DNA of 64,000 bases from an uncultured Enterobacteriaceae bacterium (lineage in GTDB: Bacteria; Pseudomonadota; Gammaproteobacteria; Burkholderiales; SG8-39). Where the stretch lies: NCBI GenBank assembly GCA_964612335.1, contig CAZTDU010000005.1, forward strand, positions 20,729 through 84,728, read 5' to 3'. Position 1 is the stretch's first letter; every line of letters starts with the position of its first letter. The notes beneath the pieces are model-generated. The model worked only from the letters and a program-made list of their open reading frames with translations, was not told where the DNA came from and ran no database searches. The position numbers were made by a program, and so were the translations under genes. Shown here in pieces: positions 10,420-48,270 of this stretch.

Positions 10420-10423
10420 GCCG

Positions 10424-20131: not shown

Positions 20132-20944
20132 TCACCGATGCGCCGACAAACCCACCACCAGCAGCCGTCGAACGAACTTCACGCATGACCACGCATGGAG
20201 TATAGCGAGCAGCGGCCGGCCGATCGCTCCCTCGCGATGCAGCCAAGCGTAGTTGGCCAGCTCGGCCCGCTCCATCGCCCACAGCTGCGCGCTCAGCCCG
20301 CCGGCGCCGAAGTCCGCCTTGTGGTGCGCGGCGAGCGCCGCTTCGAGGCGCGCGGCGCGCGTGCCGCCGCGCGTGATGTCCAGCCACAGCCGGTGATCCT
20401 CCATGTGGCGCTGGCCTTCCGGGAATCGCCACGCGCAGTCGCGGCGCAGCATCGCCGCGCTAGTGACGAAGCGGTTACGCCACAGGAAGTCGCGGAACAC
20501 GAACATGCGCACCGGCGGCGCGTCCTGCACCGGGGCGGCGGCGATAGAGCCAGGGGTGACGACATGCAGATGGCCGCTCACGCAAGCCTGCGGGTGTGCG
20601 GACATCCATGCCGCCTGCAGTTCCAGCTTCCGCGGGTGCCAGGAATCGTCCGCGTCGAGGAAGGCGACGTACTCGCCGCTCGCCGCCTCCCAGCCGGCGT
20701 TGCGCGCGCTCGCGGCGCCGAGGTTCTCCGGCAGCGGGAGCACCCGCAATGCCGGGGTCTCCGTATGGCGGGCAGCGAAGGCCCGCAGCACGGCGAGCGT
20801 GCCGTCTCCGCTCGCGTCGTCCACCAGGATCACCTCGCGAGGGCGCGCGGTCTGCGCGAGAACCGACTCGAGCGCGCGCCCGATGGTGTCCGCGCAGCGG
20901 TAGCAGGGGATGACGACCGAAACCGGCACTTCGCGCGGCGGCAT
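20132..20944 (-). CDS. Family 2 glycosyltransferase
   Basis: VSVVIPCYRCADTIGRALESVLAQT, ILVDDASGDGT, NLGAASARNAGW, and AFLDADDSW (DxD). Confidence 0.85.
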   Translation of the reverse strand: MPPREVPVSVVIPCYRCADTIGRALESVLAQTARPREVILVDDASGDGTLAVLRAFAARHTETPALRVLPLPENLGAASARNAGWEAASGEYVAFLDADDSWHPRKLELQAAWMSAHPQACVSGHLHVVTPGSIAAAPVQDAPPVRMFVFRDFLWRNRFVTSAAMLRRDCAWRFPEGQRHMEDHRLWLDITRGGTRAARLEAALAAHHKADFGAGGLSAQLWAMERAELANYAWLHREGAIGRPLLAILHAWSCVKFVRRLLVVGLSAHR

Positions 20945-20950
20945 GTCGGC

Positions 20951-21871
20951 TCAGCCCGGCGGCGCCCCGGGTTCCATCTCGACGATCGACGCCGCGCCGC
21001 GCAAGGGCGCCCGGCCGGAACCGAGCCCGAGGCGGCCGAGCAGTCCCTTGAACCAGCCCGCCGCCGGCGCTCCCCCCTGCGTTGCCGCGAGCTGCGCCGC
21101 GGTCGCCGGCAGCATGTGCGCGGGCAGCTTCCAGTACAGGTTGTTCCAGAACACCACGCCCGCACCGTCGGCGGTCTCGTGGATGGTGTCCAGCGCCTCC
21201 GGCGCCGGCGCGGCCGCCGGCGCGGCGTGCAGCGGCGGCAGCACGAACTCGGAGAAGTAGCGATGGCTGTAGCCCATCATGCGCTCGAAGTGCGGGATCG
21301 ATTCCTCGACCATGCCGCGCGCGCGCAGGAAGCGCGCGTAGCGCACGTGGTGCACGCCGAAGCTGTCGCAGCGCGACACCGCCTCGCGGTAGTGCGCGAG
21401 CGCCTCGTCGCCGCGCCCCAGGTCCTCGAGCAGCGTCGCGCAATGCCAGTGCGCGTTCGCCGCGAGCTGCGCGTGCGGCTGCGCGCGCGGGTGCGCGGGA
21501 AGCGCCAGCGCCCGCCGGAAGGCGTCGATCGCCTCATCTACCGCGCCGGCAGACTGGCGCAGCCGCGCCAGGCCGAACCAGGCTTCGGCCAGGCGCTCGT
21601 CCGCGCGCAGCGCGTCGCGGTAGTGCCGCTCGGCGACCGCACGCGGCGGCTCGCCGGCTGACAGAGCGCGCAAGCCTTCCAGGTATGCCGGCTCGCCCGC
21701 CGGCAGATCCGCGTTGCGCGCATAGGCCTCGACCGTATCCAGCAGCAGCGCCAGGCGGTGGAACGCCGCTCCGGCGTGCAGCTCGACGAGCGCCGGCTGC
21801 GTCGCGTCCGGCGCCGGGTAGCCCAGCGCCGCCAGCAGCGGATCGACGGGCGCGTCCGGCACGCCGCTCAC
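20951..21871 (-). CDS. TPR-repeat protein, unknown function
   Basis: GTG start 21871 overlaps the upstream stop (GTGA). TPR-like repeats (AEAWFGLARLRQSAGAVDEAIDAFRRAL.., GRGDEALAHYREAV). The C-terminal motif VVFWNNLYWKLP is shared with 27191..28135. Confidence 0.5.
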   Translation of the reverse strand: MSGVPDAPVDPLLAALGYPAPDATQPALVELHAGAAFHRLALLLDTVEAYARNADLPAGEPAYLEGLRALSAGEPPRAVAERHYRDALRADERLAEAWFGLARLRQSAGAVDEAIDAFRRALALPAHPRAQPHAQLAANAHWHCATLLEDLGRGDEALAHYREAVSRCDSFGVHHVRYARFLRARGMVEESIPHFERMMGYSHRYFSEFVLPPLHAAPAAAPAPEALDTIHETADGAGVVFWNNLYWKLPAHMLPATAAQLAATQGGAPAAGWFKGLLGRLGLGSGRAPLRGAASIVEMEPGAPPG

Positions 21872-23124
21872 GGCGCCCGCGCGACCAGCCCGCGCTCCTG
21901 CACCGCGTCCGCGATCAGCACGGCGATGCGGCGCGACATGGGCGCGGTGTAGTGGAAGGCATCCACGTACAGGGGTTCGGCGAGGTCCTGCTGCATGTCC
22001 GCCGCCCACACGAAGGCGTCGCCCAGCGGCGCGGCGGCGCCGGATTCGCGCATCATCGGGTAGCCGAGCTTGGAGTTGACGTGGCAGTGCAGCCGGTCCG
22101 GGTTGAACACGTGGTGGCGCAGGTCGTACTTGTAGGTCGGGATCGGCTGCCACACGAACACCGGCACGATGCCGTAGTCCCGCGCGATCGCCTTCGCCTG
22201 GCGCATATTGTTCACGTAGCGCTGGATCACCGCGCGCCGCGTCGATTCCGGTTCCGGCACGTCCGGCGTCGCCGCCACCGGCGCGGCGACGTACTGCGGC
22301 ACCGCTTCGCCAAAGGCGCGGTCCAGCGCCGCGTTGGTCAGGCGCATCAGCGGCATGGTACGCACGAACTCGGTCAGGTTCTCCCACCTGGTCACGGCGC
22401 CGTGACCCGCCACCTCGCGCTGATACCTGGTATTGCTTTCATTGAAGTAGGTGGCGAGCGCCTGCCAGCTGGACGGCTGGCCGTCGTGATAGCAAAAGTC
22501 GTTCAGGCCGTCGAGGAACACCGCCATGTCCGGGCGATGGCCGGCGGAGAGCAGCCGCTGGAACAGGATCAGTTCCTGCGTCGACTGGTAGCCCGAGCGG
22601 CCGAAGTTGTACACCCGCGCCGGCTTCGCTGCGAGCCCGCGGCGGTTCATCTCCTGCTGCAGGTAGGACGCCACCGTCGCCCAGTACGGGCCGACGCCGA
22701 ACGAAGTCGAGCCGCCAAAGAAGAACACGTTGTAGTGCTCGCCCGACAGCGGCCAGGGCCCGTTGTCGCGCACCTTGCGGTAGCCTTCCTCGGCGACGCC
22801 GTAGTAGCGCCCGTCCAGCGCGTGGGAACGAAAGTGGACGTAGCTCTCGAAGCGCGCGCCGGCTTTGTAGAACTCGTCCCACATCGGCTTCACCTCGTCG
22901 GCCGATTGCAGGTCGTACCACAGCACGGCGTTCGCCGGGCTGATCATCGCCTCGCGCACCGCGCGCGTGTTCTCGTTGATGCGGTCCTGCGGTGTCATGA
23001 GCAAATCCGGATTGGCGCGCAGCCACCTGCCGGCCGCCGCGTTCAGCAACAGCACGACGATCACTGCCATCAGCAGGCTCACGCTGATGGATACCACGGC
23101 TGCCGTGAACCAGTTGCGCTTCAA
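21868..23124 (-). CDS. Membrane-anchored SGNH-hydrolase-like protein (subfamily B)
   Basis: TTG start with TM anchor (MKRNWFTAAVVSISVSLLMAVIVVLLL). Blocks FFGGSTSFG, NFGRSGYQSTQ, FLDGLNDF, and VDAFHYT (DxxH). Confidence 0.55.
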   Translation of the reverse strand: MKRNWFTAAVVSISVSLLMAVIVVLLLNAAAGRWLRANPDLLMTPQDRINENTRAVREAMISPANAVLWYDLQSADEVKPMWDEFYKAGARFESYVHFRSHALDGRYYGVAEEGYRKVRDNGPWPLSGEHYNVFFFGGSTSFGVGPYWATVASYLQQEMNRRGLAAKPARVYNFGRSGYQSTQELILFQRLLSAGHRPDMAVFLDGLNDFCYHDGQPSSWQALATYFNESNTRYQREVAGHGAVTRWENLTEFVRTMPLMRLTNAALDRAFGEAVPQYVAAPVAATPDVPEPESTRRAVIQRYVNNMRQAKAIARDYGIVPVFVWQPIPTYKYDLRHHVFNPDRLHCHVNSKLGYPMMRESGAAAPLGDAFVWAADMQQDLAEPLYVDAFHYTAPMSRRIAVLIADAVQERGLVARAP

Positions 23125-24473
23125 GCGAGTAGCCTGTCGATCACGCGCACCGCGACGCCGTCGACGTCCCGCGCCGCGCCGGTGGCCGCGGCGCCGACCG
23201 GCGCTTCCCTTCCGTCCAGCATCCGCCGCCTGCCCGGCAGCGCGTCCACGCCGCCTCGCGCGACGTGCGCGCGCAGGAACGCCGACAGCGCGGCTTCGGC
23301 GCCAGGCGCCAGCAGGCGCGCGACGCGCGCCCGCGCCGCTTCGTCGAACGCGGCGTCCGCCGGCGCGAACACGGTGAGCGGCACGTCCTCACGCCATCGC
23401 GAGGCGAGCGGCGTCGCCTCCAGCGCCAGCGCGAGGATGCCGGCTGCGCGCGCGCAGCCGAGCTCGCGCAGCGCGGCCCACAGCCGCTGCGCGATGCGGC
23501 GCACCTCGACTTCGCGCATGGCGCGGTCGGAAGCCACCCGCGCGCGCCGCCACGCGCGGCCGCGTGCGGTGCCGCAGCGCCAGGTCACGCGCCGGCGCGC
23601 GAAGGTACGCGTCTGCGTGGTGTCGTTCCACGGGTGCAGCGTCGAGCGCGCGAGGTCTGCGGGCGCTACTTCGTGGTCGACGATGATGTTGCCGAAGTAC
23701 TTGGGCAGCGCGTCCACGCTCAGCATGCCCATGTCTTCTGGCCCGCTGGAGAAGTGAATGCCTTCGCGGTCCTCGGCGCCGCCGGCATACCACAGGAAGG
23801 TGATCGGGCAGCGGCGCGGGTCGAACGCGAACAGCTCGCGCACCGCGAAGCGCGACACGAAGCCCTCAGGCCCCGCCGGCCAGTAGCCTTCCAGCGCCGG
23901 GCGCCCGTGCGGGCTGCCGGGCATGGCCAGCGCGGTCAGCGGGTGCAGGTGGCGGCGCCCGAGCTCGGCCAGTCCCTCGGCCGGGATGCGGATGCTGTCG
24001 TCCCCGGCCACGCGAAAGCGCGCCTGCGCCTCCGGCAGGCATGTTTCCTTCGCCACCTGCAGGAAGGGCACGGCGATCGCCTTGCTGCGGCCCTCAGCCA
24101 TGACTTCGCCGCAGCGCCGGAACGTGCCGTCCGACCACAGCGTGTCCGGCGGCACGAACACCGCTACCGCGCCCGCGCGCAGCGCCTCGGCCGCGGTCTT
24201 GTGGAACCAGTGCACGTGGTACGAAACGTCCGGCGTGCGCTCGCCCAGCGGGGAAACGAACTCGGTCTGCACCAGCCGGGCCAGCCGCTGCCAGTGCGCA
24301 CTCGCCTCGACGCGCGCGCGGTCGCGCCGTGTGGTGTGGACGCGGTAGCTCACCTGGTGCGCGGCGGCGAGCGCGGGCAGGTTGCCGGCCGACAGCAGGT
24401 TAGGCAAGGTCATGTCGAGGAACAGGCCGGTGTGCTCCTCGCCCCAGACGTTGGTGATGACGTGGAAGAGCAC
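23121..24473 (-). CDS. Uncharacterised protein: novel VWG(E/D) N-terminal domain + FAS1 (fasciclin)-like C-terminal domain (paralogue 1)
   Basis: GTG start. HVITNVWGEEH..LPNLLSAGNLPAL..VFVPPDTLWSDGTF..HLHPL, and the C-terminal PLTVFAPADAAFDE..FLRAHV (FAS1-like H1/H-box). No signal peptide or TM is evident. Confidence 0.6.
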   Translation of the reverse strand: MLFHVITNVWGEEHTGLFLDMTLPNLLSAGNLPALAAAHQVSYRVHTTRRDRARVEASAHWQRLARLVQTEFVSPLGERTPDVSYHVHWFHKTAAEALRAGAVAVFVPPDTLWSDGTFRRCGEVMAEGRSKAIAVPFLQVAKETCLPEAQARFRVAGDDSIRIPAEGLAELGRRHLHPLTALAMPGSPHGRPALEGYWPAGPEGFVSRFAVRELFAFDPRRCPITFLWYAGGAEDREGIHFSSGPEDMGMLSVDALPKYFGNIIVDHEVAPADLARSTLHPWNDTTQTRTFARRRVTWRCGTARGRAWRRARVASDRAMREVEVRRIAQRLWAALRELGCARAAGILALALEATPLASRWREDVPLTVFAPADAAFDEAARARVARLLAPGAEAALSAFLRAHVARGGVDALPGRRRMLDGREAPVGAAATGAARDVDGVAVRVIDRLLA

Positions 24474-24488
24474 CGCGCGCGCCCGGCC

Positions 24489-27062
24489 TCAGTCCGTGTA
24501 CGGCGGCTTCCAGCCGTAGTTCCATGCGGCGAGGTCCACGTCCAGCGGCGCCTCGCTGCGCTTCAGCGCCATCACCGCGTTGGCGTCGAAGTCGCCGCCG
24601 CGCCCGGACGGGTCGTAGAACGGGATGCCGGCGGCGAACGCGTCGCGGATCGGCGCCGGATCGCGCCCCTCGGGCACGTAGGCGATGAAGGGCTCCTGCA
24701 TCGCCTGCACGAACCCCGCCTGCGCGAAAGCCGCGGCGATCTGCTCCGGGGAATTCTGCGCGGTCATGCCGGTGCTGAAATACGCGAACACGCCCACCGG
24801 GGAACCTTCCAGCATCCTGCGCGAGATGTGCAGCACGTGCTTCAGCGCGAGCGGGCTCATCTCGCCGAGGTTGGAATTCGAGTACACCACGTCGGCGCGC
24901 ACCGGGCAGCGCTGCAGAAAGCGCACGTACTGCCACCACGGCAGGTGCACGATGCGCGCGTCGCGCGACGGCGCGAACTCCGACTGCGCGGCAGTTTCGG
25001 CGAAGTCGCCGCCGGCAACCGCCTGCAACAGGTAGTGCTGCCACAGGTACAGCGACTGCGTGATGTCGTAGGCCATGTAACGATGGCCCGCCACCGCCAT
25101 CATCGCGCCGATGTAGGCGGCGCCCGGCCCCACCTCGAACAGCGACAGCGGCGTGCGCCGGTAAGCCTTCGCGATCTGCGACATGACGCGGAACGGCCCG
25201 ATCTGCACCAGCAGGTTGGTCACCGGCTTGATCGCGCGGCCGAAATCCGCCAGCAGCGCCGAGGCGACGCGTTGTCGCAGCGTGGCCAGCAGCGCGCGCT
25301 CATCGGCGGTGAAGCGGTTGACGTAGCCCACCGGCGCGAAGGTCGCGCCCGGCTCGAACAGGCCGGGCACCTCGGCCTCGGAGTTGTGGTCGGCGTAACG
25401 CAGCACGGCGCGCATGGTGTCGATGCGCGTCGGGTACGAGTGCCGCTCGAAGGTCACCGGCTGGAACGCCATCAGCACCGGGATCGGCAGCTCCTCGACG
25501 CCCCGGCGCTCGAGCGCGTCGTAGCGCGCGGGCGTCAGGTCGCGCGCGTCGGCTTCCTCCGCCGGGGGCACGAGCGCAGCAGGGGCGGCGCGCGGCGTCG
25601 GCGCGGAAGCGGTCGCTGCGGGCGCCGCGCGGCTCGCCGGTGCCGCCAGCAGGCCGTCGAGCAGGTAGACCAGTTGCTTGCCGCTCTGGAACGGGCCGCC
25701 GGCCACCCGCAGGTCGTTGACCGTCAGGCTGCCGCCGGCACGCAACACGACCCTGGACCCGTCCGCCATGCGCAGCTCGGCGCTGGTGCGCAGGCCCAGC
25801 AGCTCCTCCAGCTTGCGCGGCCGCCCTGTGCCCTCGTTCGGCACCAGGTGCGCGCGCAGGAAGCGGCCCAGCGACACCGCGCCGTTGGGGCCGTGCATGC
25901 GCTCGATCTCGCCGGTCGGGATGTCCCAGTAGGCGCGATTCACCGGCAGGAACACCACGCCGCCGCCGCGGCCGGCCGCCGCGCGCGACATCACGCCGCT
26001 CGCTGCCGCGGTGGCGATCAGGCGCGCGGACACGCCGCAGGATTGCGAGCGCGCGGTGCGCCACAGGTAGCGCGCCTCGCGCAGCACCGCGGCGCGGTGC
26101 AGGAACAGGTCGGACCCCGCCTCCCTGGCCCGCCATGCGCGCTCGGTGACGGGGCGCTCGTGCCAGCGCAGCTTGGCGGCCGTGATGAAATCGTTCGCCC
26201 AGCTGTCGTAGCCGTGCCACCAGTCGGCTACCTCGTCGGGGTCAGCCGAGCGCGGCCAGCGGTACCACGCGAACTCCTTGTCCCCCGGCGCGAGGCTGAC
26301 GCCGAACAGGTCGTCCGAATCCTCGATGACGTGCATCTCCGCCGGATCCATCGGGGAATCGAGCAGGTTCGATTCGTTCAGCTTCACGCGCGCCGGGTCG
26401 TAGACGAACATCTCGCGCGCCAGCATGCGGCACAGCAGGCCCTCGCCCGGCACCGCCCACAGCATCATCTCGGGATGGATGGGAAAGTGCTCGCTGTCGC
26501 GCAGGTACGCGGCCATCAGCGGGTGCAGCGTGCGCAGCGCGATGCCGACCAGCTCCTGCCCGGTGAGGGACAAGGCAAGGCCGTCCCCGCTGCGCCGCGC
26601 GCCGAGCGCGGCCGAGAAGCTCTCGCTCTCGGCGCGCAGGTAGGTCATGAAGATCGCGCTCTTGCCCGCCTCAAGCAGGCGGCCGACGTGCGCGAACGAA
26701 CCGTCCGACCAGGCGACGTCCGGCGGCATCAGCAGGATGTAGCTGCCGGCGCGCTTGGCGCGCTCGTTGGCATCGGCCCAGTACTCGTGGTGCGCCTCGA
26801 TCGGCGCCTGCAGCGCCCGCGCCGAGATGGTCTGGAACTCCAGCTTTGCGAGCGACTGCAGCGCCTGCACCTGGGGCGCCGCGCGCAGGCGCGGCAGGTC
26901 GGCCGCACTGGTGTAGATGACGTACTCGAGCTCGCAGGTACGCGCCAGGGCGGGGAAGTTCCCGCGCGCCAGCAGCGTCGGGAGGTTCAGCTCGAGCAGC
27001 CGCGAAATGTGCCAGTCGCCCCACACCGCGGTGGCGACGAGAAGCCGGTTCTTGTTTGCCAT
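24489..27062 (-). CDS. 857-aa multidomain protein: VWG(D) domain + FAS1-like domain + Ala/Pro linker + methyltransferase-fold domain (paralogue 2)
   Basis: Starts at MANKNRLLVATAVWGDWH. LPTLLARGNFPAL, LLMPPDVAWSDGSF, LHPL. The middle region has VVFLPVNRAYWDI..FLRAHLVP, the linker is APASRAAPAATASAPTPRAAPAA, and the C-terminus has LFEVGPGAAYIG..HLPWWQY..VYSNSNLGEMS. Confidence 0.6.
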   Translation of the reverse strand: MANKNRLLVATAVWGDWHISRLLELNLPTLLARGNFPALARTCELEYVIYTSAADLPRLRAAPQVQALQSLAKLEFQTISARALQAPIEAHHEYWADANERAKRAGSYILLMPPDVAWSDGSFAHVGRLLEAGKSAIFMTYLRAESESFSAALGARRSGDGLALSLTGQELVGIALRTLHPLMAAYLRDSEHFPIHPEMMLWAVPGEGLLCRMLAREMFVYDPARVKLNESNLLDSPMDPAEMHVIEDSDDLFGVSLAPGDKEFAWYRWPRSADPDEVADWWHGYDSWANDFITAAKLRWHERPVTERAWRAREAGSDLFLHRAAVLREARYLWRTARSQSCGVSARLIATAAASGVMSRAAAGRGGGVVFLPVNRAYWDIPTGEIERMHGPNGAVSLGRFLRAHLVPNEGTGRPRKLEELLGLRTSAELRMADGSRVVLRAGGSLTVNDLRVAGGPFQSGKQLVYLLDGLLAAPASRAAPAATASAPTPRAAPAALVPPAEEADARDLTPARYDALERRGVEELPIPVLMAFQPVTFERHSYPTRIDTMRAVLRYADHNSEAEVPGLFEPGATFAPVGYVNRFTADERALLATLRQRVASALLADFGRAIKPVTNLLVQIGPFRVMSQIAKAYRRTPLSLFEVGPGAAYIGAMMAVAGHRYMAYDITQSLYLWQHYLLQAVAGGDFAETAAQSEFAPSRDARIVHLPWWQYVRFLQRCPVRADVVYSNSNLGEMSPLALKHVLHISRRMLEGSPVGVFAYFSTGMTAQNSPEQIAAAFAQAGFVQAMQEPFIAYVPEGRDPAPIRDAFAAGIPFYDPSGRGGDFDANAVMALKRSEAPLDVDLAAWNYGWKPPYTD

Positions 27063-27190
27063 CAACCTTGCCAGAGCGGCCGGGCCGCGGCGCCATCCCT
27101 CTGAGAGTGTGCGGCGATGATAACATCGCGCCTTCGGGGGAACGCAGTGCGCTGCATCCCCGCCCACCCGATACCCGAGCAGAAGCCCGC
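27063..27190. promoter_or_regulatory. Divergent intergenic region (promoters inferred)
   Basis: A 128-bp gap between the minus-strand operon starting at 27062 and the plus-strand operon starting at 27191. No consensus boxes were identified by eye. Confidence 0.25.
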
Positions 27191-28135
27191 ATGGACAACG
27201 CACTGGAGCTTGCAGATACCTCGCGCGAGGTGATGCGCGGCTTCCTGCGCGCCATGGGGTGGCGGCGCGAGGACTGCCGCTCGCTGGACGTCGGGGACGG
27301 GCCGCTGGCGCGGCCCGAGCCGCGGCTCGCGATTGCGGCCGACCTGGCGCGGCGCGAGGGCGCGGGCCGGCTCGCCATCGAGACCATGCTGCAGGTCGCG
27401 CTGAGGCTGGACCAGCGCGGCGCACCGACCGCAGACCTGGAGACTGCGCTGCCGGAATGGTTGCTCAACACGCATGCGCACGCCTGCCTGCTGCTCGCCC
27501 GCGCGCTGCTGCGCGACGGCAGGGCAACCGAGGCTGAGGCGCTGCTGCGCAAGGCGCTGGTGCTCAACGACGCCTTCGGCGCGGCGCAGCGCGAGCTCGG
27601 GCTGCTGCTGCGCGCGCAGGACCGGCTTGAGGACGCTTCCGCCGCGCTGGAATCCGCGCTGGCGACGCGCCGGCGCATCGCCTTCGACGGCAGGATCGAT
27701 TCCCGGGACCCGGTGCTGGTGGCGCAGCCGAACGACGCGGTCGAGATCTTCTACTACGCGGGCACGTTCTACGTCGTGCCGCGCGACGCGAGCCTGGCCG
27801 GCGCGCGGGCGATCGCCGGCGAGCTGTACGCGGTCAGGCGCAACGCCAGCTACCGAGTGGTGCGCGAGCTGGTCCACCTGCCGCTGCTGCGCTCGCTGTA
27901 CCGCCTGCGGCACGGCAAGGGCAAGGGCAAGGGCGAGGACGAGGCGCGCCGCGCCCGGCTGCCGGGCTTCCTGCGCCCGCTTGCGCGCGCGGCGAGGCAC
28001 GGCGTGCGCAGCGGGCTGCGCCGCGCGGCGCTGGCACTGTTCGCCGAGCCTATCGAGCACCGGGCCGCCACCCTGATCGAGGCGATCGAGCTGGCCGAGC
28101 AGCGCTTGCCGCGCCGTGGCGGCACCGCGGCCTGA
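27191..28135 (+). CDS. TPR-like repeat protein, unknown function
   Basis: Starts at MDNALELAD. TPR-like LLLARALLRDGRATEAEALLRKALVLND.. and LLLRAQDRLEDASAALESAL. The C-terminal motif VEIFYYAGTFYVVP and a KGKGKGEDE stretch. Confidence 0.5.
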   Translation: MDNALELADTSREVMRGFLRAMGWRREDCRSLDVGDGPLARPEPRLAIAADLARREGAGRLAIETMLQVALRLDQRGAPTADLETALPEWLLNTHAHACLLLARALLRDGRATEAEALLRKALVLNDAFGAAQRELGLLLRAQDRLEDASAALESALATRRRIAFDGRIDSRDPVLVAQPNDAVEIFYYAGTFYVVPRDASLAGARAIAGELYAVRRNASYRVVRELVHLPLLRSLYRLRHGKGKGKGEDEARRARLPGFLRPLARAARHGVRSGLRRAALALFAEPIEHRAATLIEAIELAEQRLPRRGGTAA

Positions 28136-28157
28136 TCCGGCCGGGCCGCGGAACACC

Positions 28158-28583
28158 ATGAGCGAATCCCACGAGAACCTGGCGCGCACGGACGACACCA
28201 AGGCCGGCTCCGAGCGCGGCTTCGGCTTCGTGTTCGCCGCGGTGTGCGCGCTCGTCGGCATCTGGCTGCTGTGGCGCGGCCGCGAGGCGTTCTGGTACTG
28301 GGCCTGGGCGGCGGTGGCGTTCGCGCTGCTGGCGATCGCCGCGCCGAAGGTTCTGCGGCCGCTGAACCTGCTGTGGTTCAAGTTCGGCATGCTGCTGCAC
28401 CACATCGTCACGCCGGTCGTGCTCGGGCTGATGTTCTACACCGTGTTCCTGCCGATCGGCCTGTGGATGCGCCTGATCGGCAAGCGGCCGCTCGGGCTGC
28501 GCTTCGATCCGGGCGCGAAGAGCTACTGGGTGGAGCGCAAGCCCCCCGGCCCGCCGCCGGAATCCTTCAACAACCAGTTCTGA
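28158..28583 (+). CDS. SxtJ-like small membrane protein
   Basis: About 141 aa with hydrophobic helices (FGFVFAAVCALVGIWLL, AVAFALLAIAAP, VVLGLMFYTVFLPIGLWM). Its position immediately upstream of a carbamoyltransferase resembles the sxtI-J-K neighbourhood. Confidence 0.55.
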   Translation: MSESHENLARTDDTKAGSERGFGFVFAAVCALVGIWLLWRGREAFWYWAWAAVAFALLAIAAPKVLRPLNLLWFKFGMLLHHIVTPVVLGLMFYTVFLPIGLWMRLIGKRPLGLRFDPGAKSYWVERKPPGPPPESFNNQF

Positions 28584-28594
28584 GTCGAACCTAC

Positions 28595-28744
28595 ATGTCG
28601 TTTCTGCGCGAAGTCTGGGCCTTCATGCGGGCCCGCAAGAAATACTGGCTGGTGCCCATCATCGTCATGATGGTGGTGTTCGGCGGCCTCGTCGTCCTGA
28701 GCAAGGGCTCGGCGGTGGCGCCGTTCATCTACACGATCTTCTGA
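28595..28744 (+). CDS. DUF5989 (SxtK-like) single-TM micro-protein
   Basis: 49 aa, MSFLREVWAFMRARKKYWLVPIIVMMVVFGGLVVLSKGSAVAPFIYTIF. This is the typical companion of NodU/CmcH carbamoyltransferases. Confidence 0.6.
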   Translation: MSFLREVWAFMRARKKYWLVPIIVMMVVFGGLVVLSKGSAVAPFIYTIF

Positions 28745-28755
28745 GGGCTGCCCGC

Positions 28756-30591
28756 TTGCGCATCCTCGGGCTATCAGCCTACTACCACGACAGCGCCGCG
28801 GCGCTGGTCGCCGACGGGCACATCGTCGCCGCTGCGCAGGAGGAGCGCTTCACGCGCAAGAAGCACGACTCGGGCTTCCCCGACAACGCCATCCGCTACT
28901 GCCTCGCCGAAGCCCGCGTATCGCTCGCGGACGTGGACCAGGTGGTGTTCTACGACAAGCCTTTCCTCAAGTTCGAGCGGCTGCTGGAGACCTACCTCGC
29001 GTTCGCGCCGAAGGGATTCCGCTCGTTTCGCATGGCCATCCCGGTGTGGCTGCGCGAGAAGCTGTTCCAGAAGGACCTGCTGGCAACCGAATTGCGCCGC
29101 TACGACCCGGCGTTCAAGGTCGAGGAACGGCTGCGTTTCTCGGAGCACCACCTGAGCCATGCGGCCAGCGCGTTCTTCGCCTCGCCGTACGAGGAAGCGC
29201 TGGTGCTCACCATGGACGGCGTGGGCGAGTGGGCGACCACCTCGGCGGCCATCGGCCGCGGCAACACGCTGGAGGTGATACGCGAGCTGCACTTCCCGCA
29301 TTCGCTCGGCTTGCTGTACTCGGCGTTCACCTACTACACCGGCTTCAAGGTGAATTCGGGCGAGTACAAGCTGATGGGCCTCGCGCCCTACGGCGAACCG
29401 AAGTACGTCGATCGCATCCTCGGCACGCTCATCGACCTCAAGCCCGACGGCACGTTCCGCCTCGACCAGCAGTACTTCGACTACTGCACCGGGCTGCGCA
29501 TGACGAACGCGAAGTTCGACGCGCTGTTCGGCCAGCCGGCGCGCAAGGCCGAGGAGCTGCTGACGCAGTTCCACATGGACATCGCGGCGTCGATCCAGGC
29601 GGTCACCGAAGAGGCAGTGCTCAGGCTGACGCGCTCGCTGCGCGCCGAGACCGGGCTGAAGCACCTGTGCCTCGCGGGCGGCGTGGCGCTGAACTGCGTC
29701 GCCAACGGCAAGGTGCTGCGCGACGGCGGCTTCGACGGCATCTGGATCCAGCCGGCGTCCGGCGACGCGGGCGGCGCGCTGGGCGCCGCGCTCGCGCTGA
29801 ACTACCTGCACCTGAAGCAGCCGCGCGCGCTGCCTTCGGGCGGCGATGCCATGGGCGGCAGCTACCTTGGCCCGCGCTTTGCGCAGGCCGACGTGGCGCA
29901 GCGGCTGCGCGCGGCCGGGGCGAAGTTCGAGGAACTGGGCGACGACGCGGTGCTGGACGCGACCGCGGACGCGCTCGCCGCCGAGAAGGCGGTGGGCTGG
30001 TTCCAGGGACGCATGGAGTTCGGCCCGCGCGCGCTAGGCGGGCGCTCGATCCTTGGCGATCCGCGCTCGCCGACGATGCAGAAGCTGCTGAACCTGAAGG
30101 TCAAGTACCGGGAGAGCTTCCGCCCGTTCGCGCCGTCCGTGCTGCGCGAGGACGTGGCCGACTGGTTCGAGCTGGACGGCGACAGCCCCTACATGCTGCT
30201 GGTGGCGGACGTGGTGAAGCGCCGCCGACGCGAGATGACCGACGCCGAGAAGGCGCTGTTCGGCATCGACAAGCTGAACGTGCCGCGCTCCGACATCCCG
30301 GCGGTCACGCACGTGGACTATTCCGCCCGCGTGCAGACGGTGCACGCGGACACCAACCCGCGCTACCACGCGCTGATCGGCCGCTTCAAGGCGCGCACCG
30401 GGTGCCCGGTGATCGTGAACACCAGCTTCAACGTCCGCGGCGAGCCTATCGTCTGCACGCCCGAAGACGCGTTCCGCTGTTTCATGGGCTCGGAGATCGA
30501 GGTGCTGGTGGTGGAGAACTGCTTCCTGCGCAAGGAAGACCAGGACCCCGCGCTGAAGCTCGACTACAAGAACGCCTTCGAGCTCGACTGA
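28756..30591 (+). CDS. NodU/CmcH-family O-carbamoyltransferase
   Basis: TTG start. RILGLSAYYHDSAAALVADGHIVAAAQEERFTRKKHD, HHLSHAASAF, GGVALNCVANG, and the C-terminal YrdC/Kae1-like half VNTSFNVRGEPIV. Confidence 0.9.
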   Translation: MRILGLSAYYHDSAAALVADGHIVAAAQEERFTRKKHDSGFPDNAIRYCLAEARVSLADVDQVVFYDKPFLKFERLLETYLAFAPKGFRSFRMAIPVWLREKLFQKDLLATELRRYDPAFKVEERLRFSEHHLSHAASAFFASPYEEALVLTMDGVGEWATTSAAIGRGNTLEVIRELHFPHSLGLLYSAFTYYTGFKVNSGEYKLMGLAPYGEPKYVDRILGTLIDLKPDGTFRLDQQYFDYCTGLRMTNAKFDALFGQPARKAEELLTQFHMDIAASIQAVTEEAVLRLTRSLRAETGLKHLCLAGGVALNCVANGKVLRDGGFDGIWIQPASGDAGGALGAALALNYLHLKQPRALPSGGDAMGGSYLGPRFAQADVAQRLRAAGAKFEELGDDAVLDATADALAAEKAVGWFQGRMEFGPRALGGRSILGDPRSPTMQKLLNLKVKYRESFRPFAPSVLREDVADWFELDGDSPYMLLVADVVKRRRREMTDAEKALFGIDKLNVPRSDIPAVTHVDYSARVQTVHADTNPRYHALIGRFKARTGCPVIVNTSFNVRGEPIVCTPEDAFRCFMGSEIEVLVVENCFLRKEDQDPALKLDYKNAFELD

Positions 30592-30608
30592 GCGCCAGGG
30601 GCCGCGGG

Positions 30609-31757
30609 CTAGGCAGCCTCGCCCAGCCGGTTCCTGACGAGCGCGAACAGCTCCTCGCGCGTAGGTCGCCGCCTCGGGTCCCCGGACCGGTACAGGGACT
30701 CCAGCGGCTTGAACTCGACGGCGAAGCCATGGCGGTAGTTGCGGCGATCCCAGGCGCCGAAGAACAGCGGGTGCGTCTCCTTCACGAGCAGGATGGTGTT
30801 GAGGGCGAACTGCCTGCGGTCGAACCCCATCGCACGGAACGCATCGGTCTGGCCGGCCAGGCCCTCCGGCGTCACGTTCTCGTGCGCCAGCGCGCACAGC
30901 ACCGGGGCCAGCCGGAACTCGTGCAGTGCATCGAATATCTGTTCGAGGTTCGAATGGCCGGGAAACCCGGTGCACTGGACGACGAACACCGCGTCGTCCT
31001 TCATCGTCTGCCCGAAGATCGTCAGGTAGTCGTGCAACGCGGGCCGCGAGAACTCGGACAGGTTGGCGTTCGACGTCACCACGTCGAACTTCCTGTCGAG
31101 CAGGGCCTTCAGCTTCCACCACGGGAAGTGCAGGCATTTCGGACTCGGGAGGTCCGCCTCCTCGACCAGCAAAGGGGGCTCCACGTCCTTGCGCACATGG
31201 AGCGCCTGGTCCCGCGGCGACTCGTCGAGCACGAGGTCCCGGAAGCGGTGGCCGAACAGGTAGGAATCGATCATGCTCTGCAGGACGTAGAAGCTCTCGC
31301 AGGCCTCCACCTGGCTGTACTCCACGAGCAGCGGGTTCGGCGCCAGGAAGAACGGCAGGTATCCGCAACCGGCACCGACCTCGAGGATGGAACCGATCGT
31401 CGGCTTCACTGCGGCGATCTTCCTGTAGAGCATCAGCGCGGAGGCCATCGTGGAAACCGGCACGAGGGGCTGCCGTCGCGGCAGCCGGGCGCGCTGGAAG
31501 AGCACCGACTGCACGAGGGCGCGCACGAGCAGCTCGAGATCGTCTTCCGACAGGCCTCCTGCTTCCTCGAGGAAGCGCGCGTAACGGTTCTCCTGCATGG
31601 TGTCGATCAGCTGGCCCACCTCGTGGATCGATTCGATGCGGACCGGGAAGCCGATCCGTGCGAAGACGTCGACCTGGTGCGACTCGGCGATCCACCAGCT
31701 GGGGATCGCCGAGCGGGCGATCCTCTCGCTCAGCCGATAGTCCTGGATCTCGATCAT
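30609..31757 (-). CDS. Methyltransferase-fold protein, paralogous to the C-terminal domain of 24489..27062
   Basis: Starts at MIEIQDYRL. Motif I is ILEVGAGCGYL. HFPWWKL and VVTSNANLSEFS parallel HLPWWQY and VYSNSNLGEMS in the 857-aa protein. Confidence 0.6.
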   Translation of the reverse strand: MIEIQDYRLSERIARSAIPSWWIAESHQVDVFARIGFPVRIESIHEVGQLIDTMQENRYARFLEEAGGLSEDDLELLVRALVQSVLFQRARLPRRQPLVPVSTMASALMLYRKIAAVKPTIGSILEVGAGCGYLPFFLAPNPLLVEYSQVEACESFYVLQSMIDSYLFGHRFRDLVLDESPRDQALHVRKDVEPPLLVEEADLPSPKCLHFPWWKLKALLDRKFDVVTSNANLSEFSRPALHDYLTIFGQTMKDDAVFVVQCTGFPGHSNLEQIFDALHEFRLAPVLCALAHENVTPEGLAGQTDAFRAMGFDRRQFALNTILLVKETHPLFFGAWDRRNYRHGFAVEFKPLESLYRSGDPRRRPTREELFALVRNRLGEAA

Positions 31758-33433
31758 CCCGCAGTCGCTTCCAGTTTCGGGGCGCCGGACATGCCGCGCC
31801 CCGACGCGGCGAGGCCGCGTCGGAGTGCGGTTACGTAAGGCCCCTCCGGGATGCGAGGGAACAGGTTGGCCTTGCTCATGACCGCGGCATCGGCGGCCTC
31901 CATCGCTCCGCGGATGTCCCCCTTGCGCCAGCGCAGCAGGGCCATCCGCCGGGCGACCACGGCGTTCTCCTCGACCTGCATCGTCCTGCCGTACATGGAC
32001 AGCGCCTGCTCCGGGTTTCCCGCGCGTTCGTCGCGGCGGCCGACGATCTCGCCGGAGCGGACCAGCGCTTCCTTCGCGAACCGGTCGTCCGCCGCCGCCG
32101 CGGGCAGCGCCGGGTCGTCGGCAACCGTCCTCAGCAGTGCGATGCTCCTGTCGCGTTCGCCTGCCAGGTACAGGTACCACCCAGCCTCGAAGCGCAGCAG
32201 GGGCCAGGCCGATCCTGCGGCTTCGTCCAGGTCCGGCGAGCCGAGGGATTCCCGCGCGCCAGCCAGGAACTCCACCAAGGGCGCCGAGCCTGCATCGCAG
32301 CCGAGTTCGCGGTAGAAGCGCCGGACGATCCTGTCGATAGTCGCGACGACGTTGATGGCTACCAGCCGGTCATAGGCGTCCTGCGCGGCGCCGCTCGGCG
32401 CGACGAGCAGGCTTCGCGCGCCGGCGATGTCGGCGGACCGATGCTCCTGATCCGCGAGCAGGCGACGGACGTGCTCGCGGAGCCGGTGGGAATCCGGGAG
32501 GGAACCCAGCGCGCCTTCGGCGGCCGCCACCGCCGCCATTGCGCCCCCGGTGCGCACCAGCGCGTCGACCCAGTGAACGAGGCAGGCGACGCCCGGCACG
32601 CTTTCGCCACTGGCCACGAGGTGGCGCGCCAGCGCATCGCCCGCGTCGTTCAGCCGATGCGCGCCGCGCAGCCGTTGCAGGATCGTTGCGAGACTGGCGA
32701 CCAGCGCATCGCTCGCCGGTTCTTCGTCGAGGGCGCCAAGGCAAATGTCGAGCGCGTCGGCGTGCCGCCGCTCCGCGATCCGCAGGTGGATCAGGCCGAT
32801 CCGGACCGCGGTGGATTCCGGGACCAGCGCCTCGCAGCGCTGCAGACGCTCGGCGGCCGCCGCGAGAGAACCCGCTGCGATCATCTCTTCCACGCGGCGG
32901 ACGAACACCGGCATCAGCTCGGCGGCAGCTGCGCGCTTCGCGGCTGCCCGCGTCGCATCGCTGCGACGCGGGTCGAGCCGCCGCAATGCATCATCGTGCC
33001 GGTGATATAGCGCTGGGTTCAACAGGAGCTCGTTCAGGCTCGGCCGGACCTGGCTGCACGAAGGATCCAGCTCCAGGACGAGCAGGCCGGTATCGAGCGC
33101 GTCGTCGTGGAGCTGCAGGTGCGCTTCGATCTGCAGCTTCGTAAGTAGCGCCTGCAGGTCTCCCGGCACGAGCCCGAGGTATTCCGAGAGCTCGCGCAGC
33201 GCTTCTTCGTGCCGATGCTCCGCTGCCAGCCGGCTTGCGCTGGCGAACAGCGCCGAGGCCCGCGCGGCAAGGGGGTTATCGCGACGAAAACCCAGCGAAC
33301 GAAGAAGCCGCGACGCAACCGATCGCGCGCTGGCATTTCGCATGCGCGACCATATGCGCCGGTAGGGTCGTGCCGCAGCCTGCAACGCGATCTCCGTTCG
33401 TGGAACCAGGGGGGATGCGCCGATCCTCTGCAT
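31754..33433 (-). CDS. Helical-repeat (TPR-like) protein, unknown function
   Basis: 559-aa ORF, Ala/Leu/Arg-rich and helical. ATGA-coupled to the downstream methyltransferase-fold gene. The start is uncertain (alternative ATG 33343). I recognise no catalytic motif. Confidence 0.45.
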   Translation of the reverse strand: MQRIGASPLVPRTEIALQAAARPYRRIWSRMRNASARSVASRLLRSLGFRRDNPLAARASALFASASRLAAEHRHEEALRELSEYLGLVPGDLQALLTKLQIEAHLQLHDDALDTGLLVLELDPSCSQVRPSLNELLLNPALYHRHDDALRRLDPRRSDATRAAAKRAAAAELMPVFVRRVEEMIAAGSLAAAAERLQRCEALVPESTAVRIGLIHLRIAERRHADALDICLGALDEEPASDALVASLATILQRLRGAHRLNDAGDALARHLVASGESVPGVACLVHWVDALVRTGGAMAAVAAAEGALGSLPDSHRLREHVRRLLADQEHRSADIAGARSLLVAPSGAAQDAYDRLVAINVVATIDRIVRRFYRELGCDAGSAPLVEFLAGARESLGSPDLDEAAGSAWPLLRFEAGWYLYLAGERDRSIALLRTVADDPALPAAAADDRFAKEALVRSGEIVGRRDERAGNPEQALSMYGRTMQVEENAVVARRMALLRWRKGDIRGAMEAADAAVMSKANLFPRIPEGPYVTALRRGLAASGRGMSGAPKLEATAG

Positions 33434-33494
33434 CGGCGCGTGCTAGAGTCCATGGTCCAACAACCGCCTTGACCTTGTCAAACGTGACGCTCGC
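33434..33494. promoter_or_regulatory. Divergent intergenic region with 13-bp palindrome TTGAC-CTT-GTCAA
   Basis: A 61-bp gap between divergent genes. A perfect inverted repeat lies at 33469-33481, 14 nt upstream of ATG 33495. Confidence 0.3.
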
Positions 33495-35000
33495 ATGTCG
33501 GTACCCGCACGGGACACCAGCGTTCGCCGGAGAACGATCGGCCTGATCTGCTCGGTCTGGGGCGACGAGTTCACCGGCTTCTTCTGCCGGTACGTGATTC
33601 CAACCATTCTCGCCAGGCAGAACCTGCCATGGCTCGCCGAGCACCACGACGTCGGCCTGCTGCTCTACACGACCGCCGCCGACCTCGCGACGATGGAAGA
33701 AGACCCGGGATTCCAGGAGGTGAAGCGCCTCGCGGCCGTGCGCTGCGTCGGCATCGAGTCGTTCGTCGCGGGTGCGCGCAACCACTGGGCCTACTGGCAA
33801 CACGGCGTGGCGGAGTTCAAGGATGACTACGAGGACTTCATCCTGCTGATCCCGGATTGCCTGTACGCGAACGATTGCCTGCGTCGGGTCGCGACGGCGC
33901 TCGAGACCAGCAAGGTCGTCTACTACGCCGTTCCGCAGGTCTGCCGCGAGCTGGTCGTGGGGCAACTGGAACGATCGACCGTCCGCGCACCGGGCGATCC
34001 GGCGATCCGGCTGCTCGAGCTGTCCGTCCGCGACCTGTCGGAGATCTTCGTCAGGTACATCAACCCCAAGCACGCCGCGGCGGTTCGCCGCCCCGACTTC
34101 TTCCTGACACATCCGGAGTACGTCCTGGACGTCGGCCCGGGAAGCGTGGGGATCATCGAGCAGATCTCGCACCCGCTTGCGCTGCGCAGCACCTTGGGCA
34201 GCATCACGCAATCGTTCAGCGCCGCGGACGAGCGCCAGGATGCCGCGCACCTGGGCCTGCTCGGACTCGGCTGCGAGTTCACCCTGAAGTTCATCGAGCA
34301 GTACTACCGATGGCCCGCCGAATCGATGTCGGCGTCGCGCTTCCCCAGCCTCGGCAGCTGGTGCCATACGTTTCTGGATCGCGGCATGACGCGCTATGCG
34401 CACACACAGGCGCGAGTGACGTTGCGCGGATCGGAAGTCGTCGCGACCGAGCGGCTGCCGTCGACGGGTCGGCGCAATCGCTACGCCTGTATAGCGCACT
34501 CCGTGCTCCAGTCGCAGTTCGCGGTCTTCGAGTTCGCCAACGCGGCAGGCAACGCGGATGCGCGACGCTGCATCGCGCTGGCGATGTGCCTGCCCGGGCT
34601 GCGCCGGCGGATCATGGAACTCGGCGAGCTCGTCACCGTGCTGATCCCCGCGCCGCGCGACCTGACCGCGATGCTGGGCGCATTGGAGAAAGCCGGCTCG
34701 CCCGGTGCCTTGGTCGAGTTCTGCCTGATGCACGTCCTGCCCGGCCACCTGCGGCTCCGGCGCGGGGAAACGTTCCGCCTCTGGCCGGCCGACGCTGCCT
34801 CGCGCCGCGTGCAGCACGTTCAGCTGGTCTCCCCCGCGGTTCCCGATCCCCGCATGTCGGTGGCGAGCGGAACGGTGCGCTCGTACGCCGCGCGCGTCAG
34901 CGCGCATGCCATCGTCTACGAGGTGGACCTGGACTACGGGAACGTCGATGCGATGCTGGCGCGCCTGGATCGGCGTCCGGCCGCACAGCGTCCTCACTGA
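33495..35000 (+). CDS. Uncharacterised protein: VWG(D) N-terminal domain + FAS1-like C-terminal domain (paralogue 3)
   Basis: IGLICSVWGDEF..IPTILARQNLPWL..LLLYTT..ILLIPDCLYANDC, and the C-terminal VTVLIPAPRDLTAML..FCLMHVLPGHL. The only plus-strand member of the family. Confidence 0.6.
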   Translation: MSVPARDTSVRRRTIGLICSVWGDEFTGFFCRYVIPTILARQNLPWLAEHHDVGLLLYTTAADLATMEEDPGFQEVKRLAAVRCVGIESFVAGARNHWAYWQHGVAEFKDDYEDFILLIPDCLYANDCLRRVATALETSKVVYYAVPQVCRELVVGQLERSTVRAPGDPAIRLLELSVRDLSEIFVRYINPKHAAAVRRPDFFLTHPEYVLDVGPGSVGIIEQISHPLALRSTLGSITQSFSAADERQDAAHLGLLGLGCEFTLKFIEQYYRWPAESMSASRFPSLGSWCHTFLDRGMTRYAHTQARVTLRGSEVVATERLPSTGRRNRYACIAHSVLQSQFAVFEFANAAGNADARRCIALAMCLPGLRRRIMELGELVTVLIPAPRDLTAMLGALEKAGSPGALVEFCLMHVLPGHLRLRRGETFRLWPADAASRRVQHVQLVSPAVPDPRMSVASGTVRSYAARVSAHAIVYEVDLDYGNVDAMLARLDRRPAAQRPH

Positions 35001-39385: not shown

Positions 39386-39880
39386 TCATGCCGGCAACAG
39401 CATGCGTTGATAGTAGTGCAGCCACAGCGCGAACGCATCGTACGGCACCAGGCGCATCCGGTGCAGCGCGTCGTGGCCATCGACCAGGCGCAGGCCGGCG
39501 CCCTCGCCCAGGCGCATCGCGCCCACGCTTGCCGGCTCGATGCGCACCTCGAAGTACTCCCGGCACACCGAGCCGATGCCGACCGGGTCTACGCCGAAGC
39601 TGACATGGCCGAAGCGCACCGCGGCGGCCGCGCCGAGCTCGAGCGCCAGTTCCTCGCGCAGTTCGCGGCGCAGGGCATCGATGGCGCTTTCGCCGGGTTC
39701 GAGCGCGCCGCCGAAAAAGCCCCAGTGGTCCGGGTAGAAGATCGTCGGGATGGCATCGCGCTGCTGCATCAGGTAGCGCCCATCCCCGGTGTGCAGTATC
39801 GCCACCGCCGCGTCACCCGGCTTCAGCGGGCGCGCCGGCGCGAGGTCGAAGGCCGCCACGGGCAACGCGTCAGCCTGCAT
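39386..39880 (-). CDS. NUDIX hydrolase
   Basis: Nudix box [24 protein letters not shown]. 164 aa, overlapping the wzt stop by 11 nt. Confidence 0.8.
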
Positions 39881-48251: not shown

Positions 48252-48270
48252 GGTTCTTTCCGGGGTGAAT

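Follow-up and report, generated by a model that had tools for sequence, protein, structure and literature searches.

Introduction

O-polysaccharides exported by ATP-binding cassette (ABC) transporters are assembled by multiprotein complexes, and work on this pathway has repeatedly yielded new glycosyltransferase (GT) families (GT99, GT102, GT103 and GT137; PMC11231755). In WbdA/WbdD, WbbB, WbbM and ORF7 of Klebsiella pneumoniae O4, all of the Wzm/Wzt pathway type, soluble or peripheral cytoplasmic glycosyltransferases are combined with methyltransferase and helical interaction modules, and ORF7(O4) bears a bundle resembling tetratricopeptide repeats (TPR) (PMC11231755). Here we analyze three paralogous genes, designated A, B and C, in a lipopolysaccharide (LPS) locus from an uncultured bacterium (contig CAZTDU010000005.1, positions 20,729 to 84,728); the whole stretch of 64,000 nucleotides is hereafter called the window, and all positions and strands follow its numbering. 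We propose, with a probability of roughly 0.6, that their products are soluble, cytoplasmic, metal-dependent glycosyltransferases of the GT-A type and assemble an O-polysaccharide for export through an ABC transporter.

Glycosyltransferases coupled to TPR modules are also found outside polysaccharide export, in GT41 OGT and in the FlmG-type flagellin glycosyltransferases, which have GT-B catalytic folds and act on protein acceptors. The family described here resembles them in that coupling, and one of its members is fused to both TPR and GT41; it differs in its predicted GT-A fold and in its context, a polysaccharide export cluster. With the WbdA/WbdD-type systems the locus has in common the pathway type and the combination of soluble glycosyltransferase, methyltransferase and helical modules, but A, B and C show no sequence match to those families and no evident long coiled-coil ruler, and the helical partner is here a separate, clade-specific TPR protein. 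The closest resemblance in fold is to GT-A enzymes of the GT8/GT6 type and to dual-domain polymerases of the LARGE1/K4CP type, which provide the top structural matches and have a Rossmann-like topology and a nucleotide-sugar-type fold like that predicted here, where beta4 is followed at once by an acidic residue and, further along, by a histidine motif; the frequent two- or three-domain tandem members of the family are likewise reminiscent of LARGE1 and K4CP. Unlike these enzymes, the family has no detectable sequence relation to any of them, reads PPD where they have DxD, carries a unique VWG(D/E)xH...NLPAL signature at the nucleotide end and adds a helical linker and a fasciclin (FAS1) extension.

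Results

Three paralogous genes and their products

Gene A (23121..24473, minus strand) encodes 450 residues, comprising a GT-A-like 'VWG...PPD...HP' domain, a helical linker and a FAS1 module; gene B (24489..27062, minus strand) encodes 857 residues, in which GT-A-like and FAS1-like modules are followed by an Ala/Pro-rich linker and an S-adenosylmethionine (SAM)-methyltransferase-like domain; and gene C (33495..35000, plus strand) encodes 501 residues with a divergent GT-A-like domain and a degenerate FAS1-like module. At a G+C content of about 70%, codon-position analysis yielded a clean gene map of the window, with third-position values (GC3) of 0.92, 0.94 and 0.87 for A, B and C and second-position values (GC2) of about 0.5. 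A, B and C are real genes, and the three products, of 450, 857 and 501 residues, are already called identically in a public NCBI assembly, on a 233-kb contig. The reading frame of B remains open upstream to 27425 and its coding signal ends near 27065; a start at 27062 is supported both by this signal and by the publicly annotated gene. BLASTP relates A to B (2e-32, 28% identity over 404 residues), A to C (6e-17) and B to C (1e-16), so the blocks common to the three proteins reflect homology, not composition.

The original prediction, made from the letters of the window and their open reading frames, had taken the three frames for paralogues at these same coordinates, and had worried that its motif matches might be chance in Ala/Arg-rich sequence. 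The paralogy stands, and the BLASTP values together with the near-invariant residues described below exclude chance or artefact. Hydropathy analysis detects no transmembrane-like segment and no signal-peptide-like N-terminus in any of the three, again as that prediction had it, and the N-terminal domain begins at residue 2 to 13; A, B and C are soluble cytoplasmic proteins. A family hidden Markov model (HMM) of the N-terminal domain finds three copies in the window, those of A, B and C only.

Sequence and conservation of the N-terminal domain

The GT-A-like domain spans residues 2-294 of A (23592..24470, minus strand; family HMM 1.5e-137), 5-296 of B (26175..27050, minus strand; 2e-112) and 13-300 of C (33531..34394, plus strand; 5.8e-81). 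These N-terminal 295 or so residues have no match in Pfam-A or NCBIfam at E<=1 in A, B or C, GT-A models such as Glycos_transf_2, Glyco_transf_8 and DUF4422/GT111 included, nor are they covered by a Pfam family in 43 further family members. Sequence search of the PDB with the family profile returned only a chance match, to a designed TIM barrel (E 0.12), and the precomputed Pfam labels on relatives are PF02469, the TPR families PF13424, PF13181 and PF07719 (on TPR-fused members) or none. The earlier failure to place this domain in any family thus extends to Pfam-A, NCBIfam and PDB sequence searches.

Conservation was measured over 215 aligned N-terminal domains of the family, with residues numbered as in A. 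W10, G11, N31, P33, T47, D110, G128, H177 and R208 are near-invariant: position 110 is Asp in 98% and acidic in 99% of the domains, H177 is kept in 94% and H175 in 80%, position 143 is acidic in 87% (E143), a second acidic residue is found at position 115 in 79%, and an acidic D-S-D-D cluster is conserved at 244-247. W10, G11, N31, T47, D110 and H177 are kept also in both copies of tandem proteins. Such conservation of polar residues is typical of the active site of a working enzyme. GT-A enzymes have DxD, G-loop, xED and C-His as core motifs (PMC9364030), and E143 and H175/H177 are, by conservation, candidates for the xED base and the C-terminal metal-binding His; the overall pattern is compatible with DxD, xED and C-His as candidate equivalences. 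The motif blocks listed in the original prediction are accordingly real, and two of them are not fully common to C, which carries INPK where A and B have LHPL and in which the leading Tyr of YxVHT is missing.

The predicted GT-A fold

Full-length A was modelled with AlphaFold from an alignment of 24 sequences, with a predicted local distance difference test (pLDDT) of 91.5 and a predicted template modelling score (pTM) of 0.88. The model runs from beta1 (2-8) through a helix, beta2 (40-46), further helices, beta3 (69-73) and another helix to beta4 (103-106); the invariant Asp of PPD comes directly after beta4, and a short strand (111-113) is next. Foldseek searches of the PDB at E<=1e-3 gave 73 matches for full A and 114 for the domain alone, and, among the matches listed, the best 50 of each search are all members of the GT-A superfamily, except for two FAS1-linker chains that match the C-terminal module of the full protein. 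The glycosyltransferases matched include LARGE1, ppGalNAc-T2/T10, GTA/GTB, alpha3GalT, BoGT6a, K4CP, TarP/TarS, RmlT, glycogenin, XXYLT1 and COLGALT1, and the sugar nucleotidyltransferases RmlA, UGPase and GMPPA/B are also among the best matches; Foldseek probabilities are mostly 0.9-1.0, with E of about 1e-4. The N-terminal 295 or so residues of A, B and C are thus predicted to adopt the GT-A (nucleotide-diphospho-sugar transferase) fold. The resemblance to the DxD region of GT-A enzymes that had been suggested from motif layout finds a candidate structural counterpart in these matches and in the placement of the Asp after beta4.

Foldseek against BFVD returned mostly annotated GT-A glycosyltransferases or unnamed proteins, together with one true family member. 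This is A0A6J5PWU5, a 342-residue 'uncharacterized protein' in an uncultured Caudovirales record (E 4e-24, TM-score 0.78), whose chain aligns with the first 340 or so residues of the query and whose length leaves no space for a full FAS1 domain; it may stem from a phage or be a bacterial fragment that was binned wrongly.

Several features of the domain weigh against its assignment as a glycosyltransferase. The metal-motif position reads P-P-D instead of D-x-D, with Pro in the first position and a single invariant Asp; a pointer in favour of this position is the best local hhalign alignment of the family profile with the GT2 enzyme of the window, in which FVPPD falls on FLDAD (its DxD), at a non-significant E of 0.21. 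In C, H177 is replaced by Asn. The Foldseek matches are distant, with 8-17% identity, TM-scores of 0.2-0.4 and a core of only about 150 residues that superposes, and the relation to GT-A enzymes, as modelled, is one of fold and not of family. The model of the domain alone is poorer (pLDDT 78), with residues 189-294 of low confidence, which suggests that this segment may depend on the linker and FAS1 module, the shallower alignment being another possible cause. Finally, fold alone cannot tell glycosyltransferases from sugar nucleotidyltransferases.

The last point opens the way to a different reading, in which the domain is a GT-A-like nucleotide-binding enzyme other than a glycosyltransferase, for instance a sugar-1-phosphate nucleotidyltransferase (pyrophosphorylase) or an enzyme that moves a non-sugar group from a nucleotide donor. 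The incomplete DxD and the presence of RmlA, UDP-glucose pyrophosphorylase and GMPPA/B among the best structural matches speak for it. Sugar-1-phosphate nucleotidyltransferases carry a Gly-rich, basic signature loop of the GxGTRxxPxT type after beta1; the corresponding loop reads N-V-W-G-E-E-H in A, A-V-W-G-D-W-H in B and S-V-W-G-D-E-F in C, and thus has neither the G-x-G-T-R signature nor any Arg or Lys. Furthermore, the cluster already has the nucleotidyltransferases ManC, RmlA and an HldE-like enzyme, and the tandem copies and GT2 and GT41 fusions of the family fit glycosyltransferases better. The cross-matches themselves are to be expected, since GT-A enzymes and UDP-sugar pyrophosphorylases have the topology of their phosphate-binding cassette in common (PMC9364030). 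We therefore regard this alternative as quite unlikely.

The three proteins might also be non-catalytic pseudo-enzymes, acting as scaffold or chain-length-regulating subunits within a GT-A shell. The loss of H177 in C and the abundance of interaction modules (FAS1, long helices and TPR partners) would suit such a role, and ABC-dependent systems do use non-polymerase regulators with helical rulers (PMC11231755). Against this, the conservation of D110 (98-99%), W10, G11, N31, T47 and H177 over more than 200 domains is typical of active sites, and the cluster would be left with too few glycosyltransferases, so we consider a purely structural function improbable.

The linker helix and the FAS1 module

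In A, the catalytic-type domain is followed by a linker (residues 295-340; 23454..23591, minus strand) that holds a 32-residue helix (306-337) with a near-invariant Trp (W308), and then by the FAS1 module (residues ~341-450; 23124..23453, minus strand), which Pfam PF02469 matches with 29.1 bits at a cut-off of 22. This module aligns with PDB 1w7d through its TVFAP.DAAF and YHV regions (phmmer 7.7e-6) and superposes on the phycobilisome linker LRC6 (5y6p) over 126 columns with a root-mean-square deviation of 3.3-3.4 and 24-25% identity (Foldseek). The FAS1-like module of B (residues 366-472; 25647..25967, minus strand) gives a sub-threshold Pfam Fasciclin match (15.3 bits, E 0.024) and is homologous to that of A by BLASTP and jackhmmer. 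C has no Pfam match for fasciclin, but its degenerate module (residues 342-429; 34518..34781, plus strand) is homologous to those of A and B (local jackhmmer 8e-12), and hhalign of the C-clade C-terminus against the A-clade FAS1 region gives a probability of 92% and an E of 6.8e-7. The proposal that each copy carries a fasciclin-like segment hence holds fully for A, where Pfam, 1w7d and the LRC6 fold concur, falls below threshold in B and survives in C as a degenerate homologue.

Like FAS1 domains at large (PF02469; 1w7d, TGFBIp, periostin), the module of A has an H1-like segment (LTVFAPADAAF) and a YH-like segment (FLRAHV). In contrast with them, the A/B/C module lacks a signal peptide and is fused to a cytoplasmic enzyme, and in B and C it has degenerated. 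The classical FAS1 proteins serve in adhesion and are secreted or displayed at the surface; in location, CupS (a subunit of NDH-1) and LRC6 come closest to the module, both being intracellular and both being among the named chains that match the C-terminal region of A. An intracellular FAS1 domain is thus unusual, with CupS and LRC6 as precedents.

A large family without informative names

An exhaustive hmmsearch with a 16-sequence profile of the N-terminal domain, run over 1.84 billion cluster representatives, recovered 4,010 of them at E<=1e-3, 3,086 at E<=1e-10 and 1,114 at E<=1e-30. Architectures were counted in 189 retrieved members, and fused domains in the 43 largest of these. The linker/FAS1 region is matched in about 155 of the 189, and 29 of them have two or three N-terminal domains in tandem. 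In the single-domain members listed the domain starts mostly within the first 30 or so residues, and it starts later in longer fused or tandem proteins. PF02469 matches nine of the 43 larger members at E<=0.001 (best E 4.4e-11), and the other fusions among them are to TPR (at least five), GT2 (two), GT41 (one), FkbM and class-I methyltransferases; one family member is fused to TPR together with an OGT-like GT41 domain.

The public names of relatives are 'hypothetical protein', 'uncharacterized surface protein with fasciclin (FAS1) repeats' or 'fasciclin domain-containing protein [Bradyrhizobium sp.]', and word-indexed homologue searches with two alignments returned about 50 near relatives and no informative names. 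A profile search of contigs with the A-clade alignment found four loci only, in Kiloniellaceae, Parvibaculaceae (twice) and a Burkholderiales metagenome-assembled genome (MAG), and tblastn against plasmids gave one distant match only. Literature pairing fasciclin with glycosyltransferase, GT-A, O-antigen or LPS yielded nothing on a GT-A and FAS1 architecture; the literature searched likewise contained no instance of GT-A joined to a linker helix and an intracellular FAS1, of a metal motif in the PPD form or of clade-specific TPR partners. By these searches, the domain constitutes a new family and architecture inside the known GT-A superfamily, set apart from Pfam and NCBIfam models and without a solved relative.

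Ancient clades and their cognate TPR partners

The original prediction spoke of a thrice-duplicated domain. Three paralogues there are, but they do not derive from a recent local triplication, because each has orthologues in other lineages (35-48% identity) that are closer to it than its paralogues are (20-33% between clades). By sequence comparison, A, B and C represent ancient clades, and loci commonly contain two or three of them.

Each clade is accompanied by a soluble TPR protein of its own. TPR1 (306 residues; 20951..21871, minus strand; Pfam TPR matches) belongs to the same operon as A, in the order B-A-GDSL-TPR1-GT2; TPR2 (314 residues; 27191..28135, plus strand; weak TPR matches) is divergent from B; and TPR3 (471 residues; 31754..33169, minus strand; Pfam TPR_19) is divergent from C. 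Orthologues of TPR1 are adjacent to or divergent from A-clade genes in three loci (L001, L005 and L009) and fused with an A-clade gene in a fourth (L010: 12890..15361, an 823-residue protein). TPR2 orthologues are divergent from B-clade genes in L001 and L005, TPR3 orthologues from C-clade genes in L009 and L010, and further TPR fusions occur in the family (P0045, P0211 and P0106). Conserved adjacency and fusion indicate that enzyme and TPR protein form a physical or functional pair, and we take this as strong evidence for cognate, clade-specific pairs maintained across distant genomes. The Parvibaculaceae MAG contig CAZEHX010000005.1 (L001/L002) has two copies, 100% identical and 22,450 bp apart, of a segment of at least 13.7 kb in which both GT-A/FAS1 genes lie together with the TPR partners; either the genome itself carries a tandem duplication or co-assembly has produced an artefact.

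The methyltransferase-like domain of B and its paralogue

Beyond what had been predicted, the analysis brought out the TPR partners and a class-I SAM-methyltransferase-like domain in B (residues 535-782; 24717..25460, minus strand). The latter has a paralogue in a stand-alone gene of 382 residues (30609..31757, minus strand) downstream of TPR3 (BLASTP 2e-11), and both carry an ExGxGxG motif of the SAM-binding type, which reads FEVGPGAAY in B (then YMAYD) and LEVGAGCGY in the 382-residue protein. The latter has no Pfam match; the domain of B gives weak matches to TIGR04371 NanM (E 0.008, below the cut-off) and CalS10 (E 0.058), which point weakly to sugar O/N-methyltransferases. The module is fused in B and in an 893-residue protein of the P0004 locus, stands beside C in the window, and is separate in L001, L003 and L005; orthologues of the 382-residue gene stand alone in these three loci and in L008. 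From these sequence relations, the two proteins are likely to represent a sugar methyltransferase family without an existing model.

Genomic context

The window is an LPS locus, in which the cluster has LPS core genes (WaaA, GT9) on one side and rmlACD on the other. WaaA, a GT9 heptosyltransferase, a GT2 and ManC occupy the left end (1.6-6.7 kb), and the export route is provided by a Wzt-like ABC ATPase (264 residues; 39870..40664, minus strand; Pfam ABC_tran) and a Wzm-like permease with six transmembrane segments by hydropathy (40674..41483, minus strand), a pair that defines the pathway type as ABC-transporter-dependent. To judge from its length alone, Wzt appears to lack a terminal-cap-binding domain. 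The only canonical glycosyltransferase between 14 and 60 kb is the GT2 at the end of the B-A operon (265 residues, Pfam; 20132..20929, minus strand). A polymer would need several such enzymes, and A, B and C accordingly stand out as candidates for the chain builders that are missing. The glycan-cluster setting that had been proposed for the three genes is thus confirmed, with LPS core genes, rmlACD, Wzm/Wzt and nucleoside-diphosphate (NDP)-sugar pathways flanking them.

The B-A operon also includes a membrane-anchored GDSL/SGNH protein (21868..23124, minus strand; Pfam), one of four GDSL/SGNH proteins in a cluster that further contains DUF268, FkbM and other methyltransferases, RmlD-like reductases, a NUDIX gene and a UDP-Glc/GDP-Man-dehydrogenase-family enzyme. 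Elsewhere in the window are a transketolase split in two (42637..44372, minus strand), radical SAM enzymes, a GLF mutase and a complete heptose-nucleotide pathway (GmhA, GmhB, an HldE-like enzyme and transaldolase), followed by rmlACD. In the HldE-like enzyme (54572..56119, minus strand) a cytidylyltransferase-like domain is N-terminal and a PfkB kinase C-terminal, an order also seen in L001 and the reverse of that in Escherichia coli HldE. A GT2 (315 residues), a 116-residue EamA-like small membrane protein and a 534-residue multi-transmembrane protein without a Pfam match form a group at 9472..14027 (minus strand) that looks like a periplasmic glycosylation module of polyprenyl-phosphate-sugar synthase, flippase and GT-C-type enzyme; a B12-binding radical SAM gene (10424..12079) sits inside it. 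An SxtJ-like membrane protein (28158..28583, plus strand) is followed by a 49-codon open reading frame at 28595..28744 (MSFLREVWAFMRARKKYWLVPIIV...) and a carbamoyltransferase (28756..30591). The P0004 locus shows this order as well, with a 49-residue DUF5989 protein in the place of the unannotated frame. Two proteins of 141 and 271 residues (within 38105..39363, minus strand), near the NUDIX gene and Wzt/Wzm, have no Pfam match, and the ABC transporter of L010 is adjoined by unannotated genes of similar size (144 and 273 residues), a match by size only. PDB sequence searches with three neighbouring unknown proteins were uninformative.

All the neighbourhoods of relatives examined are glycan clusters with methyltransferases, acyltransferases and NDP-sugar enzymes, and in some of them with a carbamoyltransferase. 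In the P0004 locus the operon is repeated as B-A-GDSL-GDSL-TPR-GT2, with the carbamoyltransferase triad divergent from it, and the Parvibaculaceae MAG locus has the same heptose/GLF gene set as the window. A Wzm/Wzt-type transporter stands beside family genes only in the window and in L010 (ABC2_membrane and ABC_tran, with NUDIX). Bradyrhizose was considered as the product of the cluster on account of the one relative from Bradyrhizobium, and was dropped when the relevant paper gave no link.

The plasmid pDCAR1 of Solidesulfovibrio carbinolicus (L011) departs from this picture. It carries two distant family members together with pseB/pseC, transketolase, radical SAM and an MptE-like protein that is presumably Maf-like, in what we take to be a flagellin-glycosylation-like locus, and such a pseudaminic-acid/Maf-type setting suggests protein rather than lipid-linked acceptors, contrary to our proposal. 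The split transketolase, class-I methyltransferases and radical SAM/SPASM genes of the window (42637..44372, minus strand; 44385..45038; 47535..49434) recur in pDCAR1, which hints at a pathway for a branched or extended sugar in both.

It is hence conceivable that A, B and C are protein glycosyltransferases, which would attach the unusual sugar to Ser/Thr residues of flagellin or another surface protein recognized by the TPR partner. TPR modules typically bind proteins or peptides, and the OGT-like member with TPR and GT41 and the company of pseB/pseC and the MptE-like protein, if its Maf-like reading is right, would agree with such an activity. The window itself tells otherwise: it has a Wzm/Wzt exporter, a NUDIX gene, NDP-sugar pathways and LPS core flanks, no flagellin, pilin or S-layer gene was recognized among its Pfam-scanned genes (all but a few), and the tandem multi-copy members of the family look like polymerases. 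A protein acceptor thus seems unlikely to us.

Discussion

Proposed mechanism

Returning to O-polysaccharide synthesis as the preferred reading, we infer glycosyltransferase activity for A, B and C from the modelled fold, the conserved residues and the genomic setting. The proposal fits established biology in that ABC-dependent O-polysaccharide systems use multiprotein complexes and keep yielding new glycosyltransferase families (PMC11231755). Each enzyme would bind an NDP-sugar in the Rossmann-like half of its domain, where D110, at the position of the second Asp of DxD, and H175/H177 of the 'HxHP' motif would hold a divalent metal and the diphosphate, and a conserved acidic residue, either E143 or one of DSDD 244-247, would serve as base or acceptor ligand. 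The sugar would pass to the O-polysaccharide that grows on undecaprenyl diphosphate on the cytoplasmic side of the membrane, and the finished chain would exit through the Wzm/Wzt transporter of the cluster. Most likely, each of the three clades forms a linkage of its own or adds a residue of its own, and the two or three tandem copies in other members of the family parallel polymerising dual glycosyltransferases.

The accessory modules would organize this process. Linker helix and FAS1 would pack on the C-terminal, acceptor-side half of the catalytic domain, and we propose the FAS1 domain as an intracellular binding or assembly module instead of an adhesion domain. Each TPR protein probably scaffolds a multi-enzyme polymerase complex with its own enzyme, so that FAS1 and TPR modules together would organize the complex or hold the acceptor. 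B would in addition O-methylate through its fused SAM-methyltransferase-like domain, and C would rely for this on the separate paralogous gene nearby.

Implications for glycan assembly

We advance more tentatively, and at somewhat less than even odds, the broader notion that the VWG...PPD...HP domain founds a new glycosyltransferase family of thousands of members which, with its intracellular FAS1 domain and clade-specific TPR proteins, constitutes an unrecognized modular machine for the assembly of heavily decorated bacterial glycans. If that were so, FAS1 would act in the cytoplasm by binding glycans, lipids or partners, a role without parallel among those described for fasciclins. The activity proposed here, if true, would give a function to at least some 4,000 sequence clusters labelled 'hypothetical' or, misleadingly, 'surface protein with fasciclin repeats', and would fill an apparent gap, that of the polymerising enzymes, in a recurrent class of O-antigen and glycan clusters. 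The GT-A superfamily would likewise gain a family with an atypical metal motif, and the FAS1 domain its first enzymatic, cytoplasmic setting. The pairing of each clade with its own TPR protein, in turn, offers a testable model of how multi-enzyme glycan assembly complexes are organized.

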